Virus record (IMG/VR): IMGVR_UViG_2878651225_000003
Source of the DNA: a virus
DNA: 64,000 nt
Strand: one strand, 5' to 3'
The notes beneath the pieces were generated by a model. That model worked only from the letters and a program-made list of their open reading frames with translations. It had not been told where the DNA came from and made no database searches. The position numbers and the translations under genes were made by a program. Each line of letters begins with the position of its first letter. Within the stretch, counting starts at the first letter, position 1. This document shows positions 5,081 through 34,081 of this stretch, in pieces.

Positions 5081-5217
5081 AACGCCCCTTTCGCATTTAT
5101 CCTTAAGAGTGGAAACACGCCAACAAGATAAGGTGTCTTGCTTTCGGGGATCGGCCTAGGCGTGTTTGATACTTTGATTTTATACTGTTTATTTGTCGGT
5201 CTCAAGGCTGAATAACG

Positions 5218-17681: not shown

Positions 17682-18848
17682 TTATCCTTGCGGATCATAT
17701 ACGGCTCTTTCTACATTACCCTGATACTCTTTGAGATAAGATCCATAGGTGCGGAAAAGCATTTCAGGTCCTTTATGTCCCATTTGTCTTGATAACCAAA
17801 ACAGATTAATTCCCCTGCTAATGTGCATTGTAGCAAAGGTGTGGCGAGTTTGATAGGGATTGCGGTAACGAATACCTGCCTTCTTTAGCGTTGGCACCCA
17901 CGCTTTTTTGCGGATAGCGTCTGCGCCCGCCCATGGTTTTTTGGTTTTTGGATCGCTGAAAACATGATCGTGTTTGTTTGTGAAATCTTTTTGATCTAAC
18001 AGGGCAGAAAGAGCGAGGGTATCAAGTTCTATTATTCGATTGCCAGCTTTCGTTTTAGTGCCTTTGATTACGCCGACAACCTTTGCTTTTTGTATGTGGG
18101 CGGTTTTTGCGTTGAAATCAATATCTACCCAACGCAATGCACAGAGTTCAGAGCTACGCAAGCCGGTTCTGAGTGCAAATAAGAATAGATTTCGCCATTG
18201 TTGGTAGCGGCAATTGTCTAAAATTAATTGCACTTCTTCAGGTGTAAATGGATCAACTTCGTATTCATCATCTGAATTGCCGTCCTGTTTTTTAGCTTTA
18301 TAGCGATCAACAGTAACAGTGGCAACCGGATTAATTTGAATTACACCATCCATGACCGCTTCATCGACTGCTGAACGTAATACAGATAGCTTATTACGGA
18401 TTGTTTTAGATGTTGTATTTTGCTGCTTGATCCAATTTTTCACCATTGCAGGGGTGAGTTGGGACACGACTACTGAATGGAAATGCGCTAGACCGTTGAT
18501 AACTTTTAAATATCCATCAAGAGTAGAGGGGGATAAATTACGTTTTCTGCATGTTTCAACATACTCATTGAGATAATGTAATACAGTTACTCCTTCGATC
18601 ATTTTACCAAACAGTTTTAGCTTTGGAGATGTAGGAAAGTAGTCAGCGTAGTGAAAAGTATTCCGTTCTATCTTGTTTTGAATTTCACCCAATAATCGGG
18701 CGGCATAATTAATATTTGATTGAGTAACGGGTAAATTTAACGGCTCTCGGCAGCGTACACCACGAAATGTAAATGTAATATTAATGGTTTCTCTACTTTT
18801 ATGTTTGCGAATAGTTATGCCGCGTGGATTTTGTTTTTTCTCGCCCAT
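17682..18848 (-). CDS. int: tyrosine integrase of lambdoid prophage
   Basis: 388 aa with an N-terminal arm-binding domain and C-terminal ...RHTFATMHISRGINLFWLSRQMGH...Y catalytic region. Confidence 0.9.
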   Translation of the reverse strand: MGEKKQNPRGITIRKHKSRETINITFTFRGVRCREPLNLPVTQSNINYAARLLGEIQNKIERNTFHYADYFPTSPKLKLFGKMIEGVTVLHYLNEYVETCRKRNLSPSTLDGYLKVINGLAHFHSVVVSQLTPAMVKNWIKQQNTTSKTIRNKLSVLRSAVDEAVMDGVIQINPVATVTVDRYKAKKQDGNSDDEYEVDPFTPEEVQLILDNCRYQQWRNLFLFALRTGLRSSELCALRWVDIDFNAKTAHIQKAKVVGVIKGTKTKAGNRIIELDTLALSALLDQKDFTNKHDHVFSDPKTKKPWAGADAIRKKAWVPTLKKAGIRYRNPYQTRHTFATMHISRGINLFWLSRQMGHKGPEMLFRTYGSYLKEYQGNVERAVYDPQG

Positions 18849-23149: not shown

Positions 23150-24433
23150 TTAATTTAAGCTGTTGACTTCGCCACGGCGCAGTTCTGGCAGAACGTTATT
23201 CCAGCCATTGCGGTTGAGCTTGTCAATTTCGATATCTTGAGTGGCACGCACAAGGATTTTTCGGGCGCTTTCGAAGGTACGCTCATATTCGGTTGAACAA
23301 CCACATACAGACGGTGCGAAACTGGAACCGAGCTTAATCAGTGCAGGGTAGAGCATGCCGAGAATGCCACTCATGCGGACTGCGGCTTTCCAAAGCCAAG
23401 ATAAGGTTTTTAGTTCGTCTTCGGTGAGTTGCAGATTGAAGACTTTTTCAGGTTCCGGCAATGCCAGTTGTTGCGGTTTGTTTTGTCCGATTAGAATATT
23501 TTCAATTTGTTCATCACACCAGATAGCAAAGTCAACATTTAGCCATCGGGCGAAAGCAACTGCTAATCGACGGTGTAGCCAAGTTCCACCATTAACACCT
23601 CGGGTTGTTTTTAAAATACGGGATTTTTCCGTATTTAGTTTTTTACACAGTAATTCAATGTATTCTTGCGTGCTGTCTAAGCGTAACCATTCATTTGGTA
23701 GCTTGTTAAAATGCTTTGCAATCGCAGTTGCATTAAGAAAAGCATCGTTTTGGAAGAAAACTTCAGTGCCGTTGTAGTGGGCTGTGATGATATTAGCCAT
23801 AGCTAACTCCTTTGTATTTTTTGAGAGATTAGCCACATTTGGTTGAGGGTGGCGGGACTCACTCTCAGGCATACAAAGAAACCTGTTGCTAGGTATTCCC
23901 ATTAAGGTATTGTATTTCCCAGCTATCGACCCGCCATTGTCTTTTAGGCATAAAAAAACCGCAAGGTCTGTCGGGTGCGGAAGCCGCTTTGTATTTTTTG
24001 AGAGGGCTCCAGTATATTGTGGTTGATTTTCATTGTCAATCTTCTTTTCAGGTTCCGGCAATGCAAGTTGTTGAGGTTGGCCTTTGTGCATCGCCAAGAA
24101 CGCACGCAGTACGATTAAATGGAATTTTGGGCTTATCCAAGTAGCGTAGGCAAGTACTAATTCTTCGCAAGCCCATGTGCCTTTATTGATACCAGTGCGT
24201 AAGGATTTATGTGATACACAGATCTGTGTATCAGAGTTTTTTGATGTGCAGATCTGCACATCAGAATTTTCATTCTCAATTTCAGTGATTAAATCTTTTG
24301 TTGTATCAAGACGAATAAAAAAAGTTGGACGGTGTTTATCTTCACCACCACTTGCAATATGTAGATCGTTCAGCGAATAAAGATTTTCAAAAGTACGGAT
24401 CGGCGTATTTAAAATTGATAATTGAGTTGTCAT
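23150..24433 (-). CDS. tandem KilA-N domain ORF. May be two adjacent KilA-N genes read as one frame.
   Basis: Two paralogous KilA-N cores (…NKGTWACEELVLAYATWISPKF… and …NGGTWLHRRLAVAFARWLNVDF…), each followed by QQLALPEPEK. An AAGGAG RBS plus ATG lies at 23797. A hairpin plus T-run lies at ~23940-23975 inside the ORF. No in-frame stop separates the two halves. Confidence 0.55.
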   Translation of the reverse strand: MTTQLSILNTPIRTFENLYSLNDLHIASGGEDKHRPTFFIRLDTTKDLITEIENENSDVQICTSKNSDTQICVSHKSLRTGINKGTWACEELVLAYATWISPKFHLIVLRAFLAMHKGQPQQLALPEPEKKIDNENQPQYTGALSKNTKRLPHPTDLAVFLCLKDNGGSIAGKYNTLMGIPSNRFLCMPESESRHPQPNVANLSKNTKELAMANIITAHYNGTEVFFQNDAFLNATAIAKHFNKLPNEWLRLDSTQEYIELLCKKLNTEKSRILKTTRGVNGGTWLHRRLAVAFARWLNVDFAIWCDEQIENILIGQNKPQQLALPEPEKVFNLQLTEDELKTLSWLWKAAVRMSGILGMLYPALIKLGSSFAPSVCGCSTEYERTFESARKILVRATQDIEIDKLNRNGWNNVLPELRRGEVNSLN

Positions 24434-24569
24434 AATTTATATCCTTTGAGTGATTTTAATTGCCCTACTGTTGAGATAGGGTGATCGGGTGCTTCAACAC
24501 TGCTCAAAGTCAGCCTTTCGTTTTCCCTTGCGGTATTGTATGTACGAAACGCCACCCGATCATAAAATC

Positions 24570-24600
24570 AGGATATAAAAAAACCGCAAAAATGCGGTTG
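24570..24600 (-). terminator. rho-independent terminator
   Basis: aaccgcatttttgcggtt hairpin followed by TTTTTTAT on the minus strand, downstream of the MTase. Confidence 0.55.
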
Positions 24601-24691
24601 CTTTCCGCTTTGAGTCGAGGTGTGTTGAGCACCGTTAGCGGGATAGTAATACATGACTTTAACATTGTCAAATATCAAGCGGTATCAAAAG

Positions 24692-26581
24692 TTATTTACT
24701 GATATAGCTGGATATGCGATCGCCAATCCAGCGCATAACAGGCACAGCCATACTGTTTCCTATCGCCTTATATCGCGGTGAATCAGGGCAATCTTCGGCA
24801 GGTTTCTTGCGATACGGAATGCGTGTGTAATCACAATGTTTTATTATTTGCGCTATTCTTGATTTACTTATTGCATATTTATTAGCTAACTCTCTCATTG
24901 TTATACCTGTGCTATTGTATTCTGCGCAAATAATCGGGTGATAAATAGGATTTAGCTTAGATTTGATTTTATAGCACCCATCTTTAAATGCCTTGGTACT
25001 ATTTTCTTGTGGGGATAACAGTTGTAAATTTTCAATTCTGTTATCTTGCTTGTTGTTATTTATATGATCAATAACTTTACCTCGTGGAATTATGCCGTTT
25101 TGTGCTATCCATATAATTCTATGAATTCTGCACTGTCTTTTTACGACACCAATTTTTATTGATACAACCAAATATCCATTTAACACTGAGCCCTTGAGTG
25201 CTTTAGGTGTTTTTAAGGGTATTCCGCCTGGCCCTTTAGTTGTGTAAACAACTCCTTTCTCAGTATTAACAATAATTTTCCCAATATGTATGTTATAAGC
25301 TATAAATTCATCTTTAGTCATCGCTGTTAAATTTGCCATTGTTACTCCATAAAAACCCTGCAATCTCTCGCACTCAGTTACGGTTAATTTTCTCACCGCG
25401 GTATTGGTTGAAACAGCGTGAATATCAGTGCTTGTTAGCGTGTACATAACACCGCTATCATCTGCGCCCACGCCGTTTCCGCCTGCATTATCAGCACGAT
25501 TAATGATGTTTCCAGCAATGGCAACGCAAGGAATGTTACCGCCACCAGTTCCCATTCTTGCCTTAAGTGTCGGTGAAATGCCATTATGATGTAATCTAAC
25601 AGATTCCAATCCTTTCATCTCAAACAACACATTTTCTTGGCCGTTATTTCTCCCCAAGCAATGTGCTTTATTGGAAGCAATGGGATCTTGCGTACCGTGT
25701 ACAATAAAAAAATCGCCCGAGAATGCCTCTTGATTGCCTAACCACTGCTTATCACCACAATTTGCCAAAATGGTGCCGGCAACAGATTTTTGCGATGATA
25801 AAACAAGGCTTTCGCTGCCATTTCCACAACTGCCGCCACTTGCTCTTAGTGTGTCGGCGACGGGTTGCTCAGTGTATTTTCCAAAGCCTGTTTCAGCAAA
25901 GGCGGTAACGTTTTGTTGCGTTTCTGCGCTCGTTGTAATATTCCTTGGCAGGCTCTTTCGCTCAAAAAGTATTTCGCATGCACTTCTTTTTCTAGCACTT
26001 GCCACAACGAACACTCTTTTGCGTCGTTGGGGGACTCCGAAAAATTGAGCGTCGAGGGTGCGCCAGACGACTGTCCTTTGCGCATTGATATAACCAGCGT
26101 TACCCCATCGCTTGTTGTCTGGTGGTAAGAATGGCTCTCCGCCAGAAGCCAGTCCAGCCAAAAAACATCCGAAAGCATTGTCCTTTGTGGAAAGAACGCC
26201 GGGAACATTTTCCCAAACGATAATAAGGGGTGGTTTGTTGTCTGCGTGCCTGATGTGGTCAATTGCATTAGCTATCTCTATAAATTTTAGTGTTAAATTT
26301 CCGCGTTCGTCGTCAAGGCTTTCACGGTTGCCCGCCACGCTGAACGCTTGACAAGGTGTGCCTCCAACAAGCACATCAGGCGCGGGAATTTCGCGGTTAA
26401 GGATTTTGTCGGCAAGTGCGGTCATATCTCCAAGATTCGGCACATCGGGAAAATGGTGCGCTAATACCGCACTTGGAAAAGGCTCAATTTCAGAAAACCA
26501 AAGTGGAGTAGCGAATGAATGCCATGCGCAAGTCACCGCCTCAATGCCTGAACAGACTGAGCCGTAAGTAAAATTTTTCAT
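24692..26581 (-). CDS. DNA (cytosine-5)-methyltransferase with an in-frame HNH(AP2-type)/HTH module inserted between motifs IX and X
   Basis: Motifs I (GSVCSGIEA), IV (GGTPCQAFS), VI (ENV), VIII (QRRKRVF), IX (RKLTVTECERLQGF) and X (AIGNSMAVPV) are all present. About 170 aa between IX and X contain GYLVVSIKIG…HRIIW…VIDHINNNKQDNRIENLQLL (HNH_3-like) and a TMRELANKYAISKSRIAQII HTH. Confidence 0.8.
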   Translation of the reverse strand: MKNFTYGSVCSGIEAVTCAWHSFATPLWFSEIEPFPSAVLAHHFPDVPNLGDMTALADKILNREIPAPDVLVGGTPCQAFSVAGNRESLDDERGNLTLKFIEIANAIDHIRHADNKPPLIIVWENVPGVLSTKDNAFGCFLAGLASGGEPFLPPDNKRWGNAGYINAQRTVVWRTLDAQFFGVPQRRKRVFVVASARKRSACEILFERKSLPRNITTSAETQQNVTAFAETGFGKYTEQPVADTLRASGGSCGNGSESLVLSSQKSVAGTILANCGDKQWLGNQEAFSGDFFIVHGTQDPIASNKAHCLGRNNGQENVLFEMKGLESVRLHHNGISPTLKARMGTGGGNIPCVAIAGNIINRADNAGGNGVGADDSGVMYTLTSTDIHAVSTNTAVRKLTVTECERLQGFYGVTMANLTAMTKDEFIAYNIHIGKIIVNTEKGVVYTTKGPGGIPLKTPKALKGSVLNGYLVVSIKIGVVKRQCRIHRIIWIAQNGIIPRGKVIDHINNNKQDNRIENLQLLSPQENSTKAFKDGCYKIKSKLNPIYHPIICAEYNSTGITMRELANKYAISKSRIAQIIKHCDYTRIPYRKKPAEDCPDSPRYKAIGNSMAVPVMRWIGDRISSYISK

Positions 26582-26598
26582 GTTGATTTCTCGTGCGA

Positions 26599-27204
26599 TT
26601 AAGCTACTCGTTTCTGTTGTTCGATTTCGCTTGGCGAGAGGATTCTATTAAAAACCGCTTCGTAAGCACGGTGAAACGCTTGCTTTAATTCAGCTTCGGC
26701 AGTTTTGGGTGATAGCACTTTGAGCGGAATAGGGACGGTTGTCACACCTTCCAGTTGCGCCCAGTCGCTTTCATTGCTCAATAACGCTTCTTTTTCCATT
26801 TTCAGCGCAATCAAATCAACCCGCTTCACTAAATCTTTCTCGGTGTCGCTGATTTCCGGCAAGCCGTACCGCACTTCGATAGCTTGTTCAAAACGTGCCT
26901 CAATCGCCATAAAATCAGGTAGCAATCGTTTGAGCGGCGTCGGCACATCTTTGACGTAAGCTTCGGCGAAATCGTGCATTAGCACTCTCAAGCACAAATA
27001 CGGGGGGTAGCCCAAATGCTCGGCGATTGCTAAACAAAATAGCAGATGATTAGCAACGGAGTAGGGCGCTTCGGACTGCCCCATAAAGCGATTTTCAAGG
27101 CTTAAATGGTGCGCGATGTCGGTAATGCAGATTTGATTTGGGTCGGGTGCGGTGTAGTCGATGTGCTTGTGCGAGTAGGTTTTAATCCAGTTGTTAGATA
27201 CCAC
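26599..27204 (-). CDS. HD-domain phosphohydrolase (YfbR-like)
   Basis: H…HDFAEAYVKD (HD motif). Confidence 0.6.
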   Translation of the reverse strand: MVSNNWIKTYSHKHIDYTAPDPNQICITDIAHHLSLENRFMGQSEAPYSVANHLLFCLAIAEHLGYPPYLCLRVLMHDFAEAYVKDVPTPLKRLLPDFMAIEARFEQAIEVRYGLPEISDTEKDLVKRVDLIALKMEKEALLSNESDWAQLEGVTTVPIPLKVLSPKTAEAELKQAFHRAYEAVFNRILSPSEIEQQKRVA

Positions 27205-29237: not shown

Positions 29238-29852
29238 TTATCCTTTTAATGCATTAAGTGAGGTAATAAACTGCGGAATATGCTCATCAAACGCTTTCAT
29301 CAGGTTTTTATCACGCGCTACAGTGATAAGAAAAAGCGTCTGTTTTTGGTACTCAGGGCAGTAGCTGACAAAATCCCATGTATCGTAGCCAGTTACCCAC
29401 AAATTGGCTTGCACCTGAATGATGTACTCCGACGGCAAACCGCCCTCAAGAATGTAACAAATGTGCGTACTCATTTTGGGACATTTGATTTCAAGCCCTT
29501 TGCGTAGTTCAGGAATTAAGCCGTCTGGGCTGACCATGACTGTGCGATTTTCATCACGATACACACCGCCGACTTGTTGCACGCTGTAGCCTGTTTCAAA
29601 TTCATACGCCATGCGCGCGAGCGGTTCAAGCTCATTGCCTCGCTCCATTGCTGCCGATTTAAAGGATTTTTCGGGCAGGCCTAAAATGCTTTCTTCGATC
29701 AGCTCCGCCATATACTTTTTTTGCGAACTGGATTTTTCACCGCTGGCGGTAACGATGTTTTTAATCCCCGTGGCGGTAGGAATGCCTAGCCGTGCAGTTA
29801 GCCATTCCTCCGTGCCTTGTTCGCAATCGAGTGTTATTAGATTGTCTGTCAT
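29238..29852 (-). CDS. YqaJ-type phage recombination exonuclease
   Basis: [20 protein letters not shown] (YqaJ signature). Confidence 0.75.
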
Positions 29853-30637
29853 ATCTTAATTTCGTCCCCTAGATTGTCATCGTCCGGTGCTTCGGCGGCT
29901 TGTGCGTCAAGTGTTGTATGTAACTTGTTGATGACCTTGACTGCGTGCGCCGCCGTAATTTGCTCAATTGTGCTTACACCGCAAATCGCCAACACTTTTT
30001 CCGCTTCCGTTCCAGTGGCTTCAAGCAGTTGTTTAACTTGCTCAACTTGTTCAGCGCTGATCAGTTCAACCGCTTGCGCTTCGATCACGTTCGGTTTTGG
30101 GGTGACGTTAATCGGCTCTTTTTGTGTTTCGACAATGCGCTCTGCTTCGTCTTGGTCGTAAATACCAGTAAAACCAAAGGCAAGACGTGCGCACTGGATC
30201 ATGGTTTTGTGCCGCAGCATTCGTTTCGGGTGCGATTTCCATGGTTGCGTGTTGCGTTGGCATTCACCCATATATTCGGTGACGATAATTGGGCGCGAGC
30301 GATCTTTGCGGTATATCGTGCAAGTGCAGCTGTTTTCTTCGCTGTTAAAGCTGAAATCCATACCGTCATATTCTGGGTGTTCGTTCATGATGCGCGACCA
30401 ACCGTCCACGCCGACAATCGGCACGATTCCGCCGTTATTCGGAAATGCGTAAATCTCGTTCGTCCACGGGTTTAAGCCGTGCTGATTGGCAACAACAAGT
30501 AATGCTGTCATTTGCTCATTGCTTACTTTTTGCCCCCGAAATGCGGTGGCTGTAAGCACGTTGGTTAAGCCTGCGCTGTCGCCCATATCAAAACGATCAG
30601 CCAGTTTTTGGGTGAGGGTAGCGAGTGCGCTTGTCAT
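29849..30637 (-). CDS. recT: RecT-family single-strand annealing recombinase
   Basis: 262 aa, RecT-like, immediately upstream of the YqaJ exonuclease. Confidence 0.7.
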   Translation of the reverse strand: MTSALATLTQKLADRFDMGDSAGLTNVLTATAFRGQKVSNEQMTALLVVANQHGLNPWTNEIYAFPNNGGIVPIVGVDGWSRIMNEHPEYDGMDFSFNSEENSCTCTIYRKDRSRPIIVTEYMGECQRNTQPWKSHPKRMLRHKTMIQCARLAFGFTGIYDQDEAERIVETQKEPINVTPKPNVIEAQAVELISAEQVEQVKQLLEATGTEAEKVLAICGVSTIEQITAAHAVKVINKLHTTLDAQAAEAPDDDNLGDEIKI

Positions 30638-34004: not shown

Positions 34005-34081
34005 TGGTGGCCGCCACAGGATTTGAACCTGCTATCCTACGATTATGAATCGTCCGCTTTTACCAATTAAGCTAAACGGCC
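34005..34081 (-). tRNA. tRNA with CAU anticodon (Met or Ile2), prophage-borne
   Basis: 77 nt: GGCCGTT-TA-GCTT-AATTGGTAA-AAGC-G-GACGA-TTCATAA-TCGTA-GGATA-GCAGG-TTCAAAT-CCTGT-GGCGGCC-A-CCA. The cloverleaf is satisfied apart from a G27·A43 mismatch and G·U pairs in the acceptor stem. Confidence 0.6.

Follow-up and report, generated by a model that had tools for sequence, protein, structure and literature searches.

The 64,000-nucleotide stretch of viral DNA studied here (IMG/VR record IMGVR_UViG_2878651225_000003, referred to below as the window) contains a minus-strand open reading frame (ORF), at positions 24692..26581, which encodes a 629-amino-acid (aa) C5 DNA methyltransferase with an embedded HNH endonuclease. 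By sequence and predicted fold, the embedded part is a complete I-HmuI-like HNH_3 endonuclease, and its gene is probably a homing endonuclease gene, maintained without splicing as an extra domain in the hinge of the methyltransferase. An exact look-up identified the protein as WP_115306363.1 of Pasteurella testudinis DSM 23072, whose deposited annotation is merely 'DNA cytosine methyltransferase (dcm)'.

A first-pass annotation, made from the sequence alone, had described at this place a complete HNH_3 module with a helix-turn-helix (HTH), inserted in frame between methyltransferase motifs IX and X, and Pfam, structure models and alignment all agree with that description. It had offered three readings, namely a domesticated homing endonuclease, a single-chain restriction-modification or anti-restriction enzyme, and a mobile domain insertion that the methyltransferase tolerates. 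Judged from sequence comparisons, the third appears to be the best supported, as the insert is absent from a homologue with 87% identity, is found at the same site in divergent and permuted methyltransferases, has a tree in conflict with that of its hosts and has free-standing relatives.

Boundaries of the insert

The insert was delimited by alignment to insert-free homologues, as had been proposed at first pass. It comprises residues 411-584 (174 aa; 24830..25351, minus strand) and consists of a 10-aa linker followed by the complete I-HmuI-like endonuclease. The earlier estimate of its position, roughly 24781-25291, was thus some 50-60 nucleotides (nt) off, while the location between motifs IX and X was correct. 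The 174 residues stand in place of 3 aa (QDN or PDD) in the empty alleles, an example of which reads ...GAATGCGAAAGGTTGCAAGGGTTTCAAGACAATTACACAAGAATACCC.... The closest homologue, from Pasteurellaceae bacterium USgator11 (P0001, VDGW01000069; 459 aa, 87% identity), lies in the same prophage synteny and lacks residues 411-584: the window sequence RLQGF-[174 aa]-YTRIPY corresponds to RLQGF-QDN-YTRIPY in P0001. Phage Pm86 likewise has an empty allele. The insert is markedly AT-rich, as first remarked, with a GC content of 32%, while the parts of the gene on either side have 44% and 48%.

By alignment, the insertion site corresponds to P286-S288 of M.HhaI, between motifs IX and X. In M.HhaI these residues form the hinge through which the chain passes from the small domain, which holds the target-recognition domain (TRD), back into the large catalytic domain. 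That a normal TRD had been mistaken for an insert was ruled out, since the target-recognition region lies upstream, at about residues 206-395, and the insert-free homologues align across the gap.

The methyltransferase

The N-terminal part of the methyltransferase, residues 1-410 (25352..26581, minus strand), contains motifs I-VIII, the TRD and motif IX, as placed by Pfam, alignment and model; the Pfam DNA_methylase domain (PF00145) covers residues 6-410 with an E value of 5.5e-34. The C-terminal segment, which alignment places at residues 585-629 plus the stop codon (24692..24829, minus strand; YTRIPYRKKPAEDCPDSPRYKAIGNSMAVPV...), bears motif X and is in frame with the endonuclease, with no stop codon in between. 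As the insert has no stop of its own and both junctions are in frame, the N-terminal part of the methyltransferase, the endonuclease and motif X form one polypeptide. The motifs read GSVCSGIE (I), GTPCQ (IV, with the catalytic C77), ENVPG (VI), QRRKR (VIII), RKLTVTECERLQGF (IX) and GNSMAVPV (X), and all of them align with those of the homologues and of M.HhaI. The initial statement that the canonical motifs are all present was therefore right, and with the motifs intact the suspicion of a pseudogene that has lost the methyltransferase fold found no basis.

In the full-length AlphaFold2 model the catalytic domain has a good predicted local distance difference test (pLDDT) score, and Foldseek matches it to M.HhaI and DNMT1. 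The pLDDT exceeds 90 in the HNH part and is 82-88 in the motif X helices at the C-terminus; the TRD is poorly predicted. By its motifs and predicted fold, the product of the ORF is a C5 cytosine DNA methyltransferase. A match to a P1-like Dmt protein (H34) was set aside as irrelevant, this being a large Dam-Dcm fusion.

The endonuclease

Within the insert, Pfam recognizes an HNH_3 catalytic core at residues 485-528 (24998..25129, minus strand; E value 1.7e-17), followed by a C-terminal HTH at residues 543-582 (24836..24955, minus strand), for which the Sigma70_r4 match is weak. This match is stronger in relatives, and the models show helices at residues 545-584. Modelled alone, the insert gave a pLDDT of 89.2, and the sole significant match of this model in the PDB, obtained with Foldseek, was I-HmuI (1U3E; E value 9.2e-6, 163 of 174 columns, template modelling score 0.49). 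The predicted model consists of an N-terminal beta DNA-binding domain, the HNH core, helices and the C-terminal HTH. The likeness to I-HmuI thus extends to size (174 aa) and to domain order, that is, a beta-sheet DNA-binding domain, a beta-beta-alpha-metal HNH core with D/H/N/N residues, a helical linker and an HTH.

Residues D505, H506, N518 and N527 align to D74, H75, N87 and N96 of I-HmuI, in which H75 is the general base and the metal is bound by an asparagine where the alpha-helix begins (PMC3384342). These catalytic D-H...N...N residues are invariant in 29 relatives. On this evidence the P. testudinis copy looks intact and potentially active. It departs from the usual context of I-HmuI-like enzymes in being without a group I intron and without its own stop codon, and in being fused in frame on both sides.

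Splicing elements

No intron was found by Rfam at E<=1 on positions 24000-27000, where the sole match was sRNA-Xcc1, outside the gene, and none reached the Rfam gathering score in the whole window or in 16 related loci. No Hint or intein match was found by Pfam in the ORF protein, which matched only DNA_methylase, HNH_3 and HTH families. The insert opens with Y, or with P in relatives, and closes with ...HCD, the residue at +1 being Y; across copies, GF is followed by P or Y at the first junction, and G or D by W or Y at the second. As had been pointed out at first pass, there are no intein junction residues: neither position 1 nor +1 is Cys, Ser or Thr, and there is no terminal His-Asn. Group I and group II introns were thus ruled out by the Rfam searches, and an intein by the lack of Hint matches and by the wrong junction residues. 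Conservation at the protein level begins and ends only a few residues from the two junctions, so that a ribozyme core would find no space.

One might still think of a self-splicing element that escaped recognition, either a degenerate group I intron filled by its ORF or an atypical intein. HNH genes of the I-HmuI family usually reside in group I introns, as I-HmuI itself does, and the authors who described the ShiLan domain of mycobacteriophage methylases, to which we return below, could not fully exclude splicing in their case (PMC11855218). Given the searches and junctions described above, we regard such an element as the least probable of all the explanations considered. Since both a Hint splicing domain and splice-junction residues are lacking, the insert must remain in the mature protein.

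Family and distribution of the insert

Searches with the insert alone retrieved 41 proteins from a database clustered at 90%, the best with 59-60% identity, and 45 proteins at E<1e-30 from a 50%-representative library. The relatives were sorted by architecture, 116 of them covering the whole insert. About 69 of these are embedded, with upstream sequence in the same ORF, and 67 of the embedded ones also have motif X downstream. Motif IX (at least ..LQGFP) was seen upstream in most embedded relatives, although not in the most distant ones, and PF00145 was found in all 10 embedded representatives scanned. A further 22 relatives were called from a conserved Met and run on into motif X, and 17, of 154-197 aa, are free-standing: they start at or within a few residues of this Met and stop at the end of the insert.

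The presence of the insert is sporadic. HNH_3 occurs in only 3 of the top 120 homologues of the protein and the insert is absent from the other 117. Where it is present, its position is constant: in 17/17 loci examined with DNA it lies between RLQGF(P) and [W/Y]T. Its length is usually 177-180 aa, counting the 10-aa linker, and the linker varies little in length (8-10 aa). Of 16 loci with DNA, 15 keep the frame at the 5' junction and all keep it at the 3' junction, even though most pairs of loci are saturated at synonymous sites. As the same insert occurs at the same site in many independent assemblies, the observation is far beyond chance.

The host contigs are associated with Proteobacteria, Firmicutes, Bacteroidota and Verrucomicrobiota. 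The host proteins include canonical methyltransferases like that of the window, methyltransferases with long extra segments and apparently circularly permuted ones. In many hosts a single ORF shows the motif order IV-VI-VIII-TRD-IX-[HNH]-X-I (L008 1460-3592; L088 2822-4819; L094; P0163, P0169); these proteins start with 'M.HFGDIT..GGSPCQ' and end after '..LGSLFDGIGGF..ASEIEEFPIAVTKKHFG'. From their sequence they appear to be circularly permuted C5 methyltransferases, in which motif I, binding S-adenosylmethionine, is C-terminal.

This variety of hosts bears on the first-pass suggestion of a single-chain restriction-modification or anti-restriction enzyme, whose HNH part would cut DNA left unmodified by the linked methyltransferase. 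A nuclease and a methyltransferase do share one polypeptide here, and HNH genes also adjoin phage methyltransferase genes. The suggestion is nevertheless unsupported and seems highly improbable to us. The module has the predicted fold of a whole long-site homing nickase of the I-HmuI type, with its own DNA-binding domains, rather than of a nuclease that borrows the TRD of the methyltransferase, and it is not linked to the TRD; it recurs in methyltransferases with quite different TRDs; most members of the family do without it; and its free-standing relatives are ordinary phage HNH homing endonucleases. In type IIG and IIC enzymes the nuclease is fused at an end. Here it is internal, lying in the hinge, and self-contained, and not a terminal nuclease that shares the specificity of the methyltransferase and its TRD.

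The host gene is broken at some of the related loci. In L003, a 1-nt shift at the 5' junction (position 1688) makes the TGA of the N-terminal part overlap the ATG of MTKDE (an ATGA stop/start), and the methyltransferase is thus split into an N-terminal part and an HNH-motif X part. In L004 (5764-5785; the same in L005) the TRD carries a frameshift, identical in two independent samples, and in L093 (3124-3290) the host methyltransferase contains in-frame stops. Such cases raise the question of a dead relic, in which the insertion would have inactivated a dispensable prophage methyltransferase and both parts would be decaying. Phage orphan methyltransferases are indeed often dispensable, and these frameshifts and stops fit with decay of the host gene. 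For the window copy, this explanation is very unlikely: its 629-codon frame is open, all methyltransferase motifs and HNH catalytic residues are intact, and the relatives are under purifying selection.

When the region was compared with GenBank phages by megablast, no match was found. The insert, compared by tblastn with the same collection, matched only free-standing or intron-borne HNH genes, with about 30-36% identity, and no cultured phage in that collection thus carries the insert. One of the sequences matched by the insert was Phage DP SC_2_H4_2017 (MT121960.1 34664-35173; 92% coverage, 29% identity), where the matching stretch lies within a gene that bears the annotation DNA polymerase 1. 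It may represent a further HNH of this broad family, either embedded or carried by an intron, that occupies another host gene.

Probable mobility and selection

The tree of the inserts is in conflict with that of the hosts. The window insert groups with the inserts of permuted 'type B' methyltransferases (bootstrap 100, 56-60% identity), whereas its methyltransferase core shows 60-66% identity to 'type A' hosts but no more than 36-38% to type B. The inserts of the type A hosts are only 44-46% identical to the window insert. In 17/17 loci the GC content of the insert is lower than that of its flanks. Where close pairs allow measurement, the insert is under purifying selection, according to ratios of nonsynonymous to synonymous substitution rates (dN/dS) of 0.21 (L006/L093) and 0.15 (L003/L011).

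The first-pass annotation had also proposed looking for the HNH module as a free-standing gene elsewhere, and the 17 free-standing proteins mentioned above are of this kind. The closest of them, P0176 (L169 2569-4921), is 49% identical to the insert and has its own GGAGG-GTG start. It overlaps the 3' end of a Dam-like methylase gene, itself called in two pieces, and directly downstream of it lies a C5 methyltransferase gene with an empty IX/X site (QGFSRDY). Mannheimia phage 587AP2 has an HNH_3 gene directly downstream of a homologous methyltransferase; with 27% identity to the insert it belongs to a different HNH_3 lineage and was ruled out as the donor.

The main rival to a mobile insertion is domestication, another of the readings initially offered, and it fared less well than a mobile insertion without being dismissed. 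According to it, an ancient insertion no longer moves and is kept because the fusion is of advantage to the phage, for instance by providing the methyltransferase with extra DNA binding or by nicking the genomes of competing phages (marker exclusion). Purifying selection acts on the insert, with dN/dS of 0.15-0.21, and the insert appears to be a long-term resident, for which reasons we continue to consider this explanation. The nearly fixed linker of 8-10 aa, the frame kept at both junctions, an insert GC content that follows the host GC and thereby suggests long residence, and parts of the insert tree that follow the host type are in line with it. We nevertheless judge it unlikely, since neither the homologue with 87% identity nor >97% of the homologues listed have the insert, the window insert is nested among those of a very different, permuted class of methyltransferases, the host methyltransferase is broken while the HNH ORF is intact in several loci, and the free-standing relatives are ordinary phage HNH genes.

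Proposed mechanism

Our preferred explanation, a homing endonuclease gene retained as a domain, would operate as follows. The insert would be a site-specific mobile gene of the I-HmuI/HNH_3 type, descended from free-standing phage HNH genes, that has colonised one precise site in phage C5 methyltransferase genes, the part coding for the hinge, flanked by motif IX (RLQGFP) and motif X. The element has neither an intron nor an intein as its vehicle, lacks its own stop codon and is in frame at both junctions, and the endonuclease would be a looped-out domain of a single polypeptide. The hinge would be a permissive surface site, at which the methyltransferase may still fold and work despite the insert. 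The HNH module would nick or cut insert-free alleles in co-resident phages or prophages, acting either as the fusion or as a 215-aa product of an internal GGAG-ATG start. Recombinational repair from the occupied allele would then copy the insert in, resulting in homing, and the RecT and YqaJ proteins of the prophage itself may aid in this repair.

The possible internal ribosome-binding site and start consist of GGAG at 25345-25348, a 5-nt spacer and the ATG of M415 at 25337-25339 (minus strand). Further downstream, at 25319-25321 (minus strand), is the ATG of M421, the Met of MT[KR]DE, which is the start codon of free-standing relatives; an equivalent Met is present in about 90% of the embedded copies. 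No internal promoter was detected, promoter-like matches being no commoner than in shuffled sequence.

Several observations weigh against homing by a retained domain, or limit what can be concluded about it. A Shine-Dalgarno-like sequence before the conserved Met is strong in some loci and lacking in others. A general internal Shine-Dalgarno sequence at this place was rejected because of this inconsistency, and internal initiation is for the same reason proposed here only as a hypothesis. No close relative of the window insert was found, the best being 59-60% identical, and the copy may therefore be an old resident rather than a recent gain. Across loci the GC content of the insert follows that of the host (29-63%), which indicates long co-residence and fits domestication as well as slow turnover. 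The in-frame counts come from loci that are phylogenetically non-independent. The host methyltransferase is broken in L003, L004/L005 and L093, where the HNH-motif X ORF is intact, and the host gene is thus not always kept functional. Finally, the I-HmuI monomer is extended, with its two ends at distant places on the DNA (PMC3384342), which is awkward for insertion into a hinge.

Comparison with known systems

I-HmuI, I-HmuII, I-BasI and I-TwoI are intron-encoded HNH nicking homing endonucleases of Bacillus and Staphylococcus phages. Like them, the insert is phage-borne and sits at a conserved site in a conserved gene. Theirs are separate ORFs in self-splicing group I introns, whereas the insert is intron-less and part of the host protein, with a sequence identity to them of only about 20-30%. 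HNH-bearing inteins likewise place an endonuclease in frame at a conserved site of a conserved protein, but they have the Hint splicing domain and splice-junction residues that the insert lacks.

T4 Seg and Mob, and mobE, which splits nrdA in Aeromonas phage Aeh1, are free-standing homing endonucleases that split or abut host genes (PMC2988022, PMC2790892). They resemble the present insert as homing endonuclease genes without intron or intein that are tied to a conserved phage gene, and in L003 the methyltransferase is likewise split. They differ in having their own start and stop and in lying between genes or gene fragments, while the endonuclease described here has no stop and is normally fused on both sides.

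Our literature searches found no description of this architecture, the nearest being only papers of the Gogarten group. The ShiLan domain and the Pacc40 insertion were described in DNA methylases of actinobacteriophages (mycobacteriophages) (Gosselin et al. 2023, PMC9957025; Arsenault et al. 2025, PMC11855218). They are open in the host frame, have neither intron nor intein, carry an HNH gene out of frame and have a disjunct distribution (PMC11855218). The insert of the window shares with ShiLan a non-spliced, open-frame insertion at a conserved phage methylase site, with no stop added and no detectable intron or intein, and the carriage of an HNH. It also shares the disjunct distribution, the tree that conflicts with that of the host methylase and the related free-standing HNH genes adjoining methylase genes.

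The two cases differ in the frame of the HNH. In ShiLan it is hidden in another frame, and the product read in frame is a low-confidence loop; here it has the same frame as the methylase, and the fusion protein itself would thus contain the folded endonuclease. They differ also in their hosts, which here are C5 methyltransferases of Gram-negative and gut phages rather than those of mycobacteriophages, and in the insert family, here I-HmuI-like HNH_3 with an HTH as opposed to an HNH with zinc fingers.

Lone LAGLIDADG domains in actinophage methylases (Taj gp79, PMC9957025), which belong to the methylase family that also harbours the ShiLan domain, are similar as complete in-frame homing-endonuclease domains with no intein domain or intron detected. 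They belong to another endonuclease family and use another insertion site, and they were reported to be vertically inherited in one clan (PMC9957025), whereas the insert described here is found across many methyltransferase lineages.

Prophage setting

The methyltransferase gene lies in the early-left operon of a prophage, every gene of which is on the minus strand. At the downstream end of the operon is an integrase gene (17682-18848), followed by rising coordinate by the genes for a DUF551 protein and RdgC and by a KilA-N/P22 antirepressor gene (23150-24433), which adjoins the methyltransferase on its downstream side. On the upstream side, four unknown genes separate the methyltransferase from the genes for YqaJ exonuclease and RecT (29238-30637), about 3 kb away at the upstream end of the listed operon. 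No second copy or remnant of the insert was found within the window.

A full-length match to sRNA-Xcc1 (RF02221; 69 bits) is located at 24475-24561 (minus strand), 130 nt downstream of the methyltransferase stop. Upstream of it are a promoter-like site at 24671-24643 and a terminator-like hairpin at 24582-24599, and neither L002, an insert-free relative, nor 15 further related loci have the RNA. Elsewhere, the window contains a C4 antisense RNA and isrK (P1/P7-type immunity RNAs), an int-alpA RNA and a tRNA, these features having the coordinates 585-801, 5101-5166 and 34008-34081 (all minus strand). The presence of C4/isrK, int-alpA RNA and tRNA suggests that the window holds more than one prophage or island.

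Implications

The prevailing view is that homing endonuclease genes survive in essential or useful genes only if they are removed by way of an intron or an intein. That some insertions do without splicing was suggested in two recent papers on methylases of mycobacteriophages, on evidence that was thin and with the HNH out of frame. The present case is cleaner and much larger, with an in-frame endonuclease that is predicted to fold, one hinge site, about 70 sequence clusters and several bacterial phyla. A broader proposal, which we put forward tentatively and consider somewhat improbable, is that retention as a domain is a widespread third way, besides introns and inteins, in which a homing endonuclease can persist within a coding gene. 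The I-HmuI-like enzyme might then be a permanent part of the hinge of an active methyltransferase and the fusion itself the homing enzyme, with the methyltransferase providing for expression and perhaps also helping to target DNA or to protect its own homing site.

As the insert is also present in the cultured type strain P. testudinis DSM 23072, its tolerance by the methyltransferase, the nicking of empty alleles and homing are all directly testable. For annotation, the case reveals a gap, an endonuclease-bearing protein being deposited as a plain 'Dcm', and the hinge would offer a permissive insertion site in C5 methyltransferases usable for protein engineering. More generally, the finding bears on a possible origin of inteins and intron-borne endonucleases, in which an endonuclease may first have landed in a permissive site.

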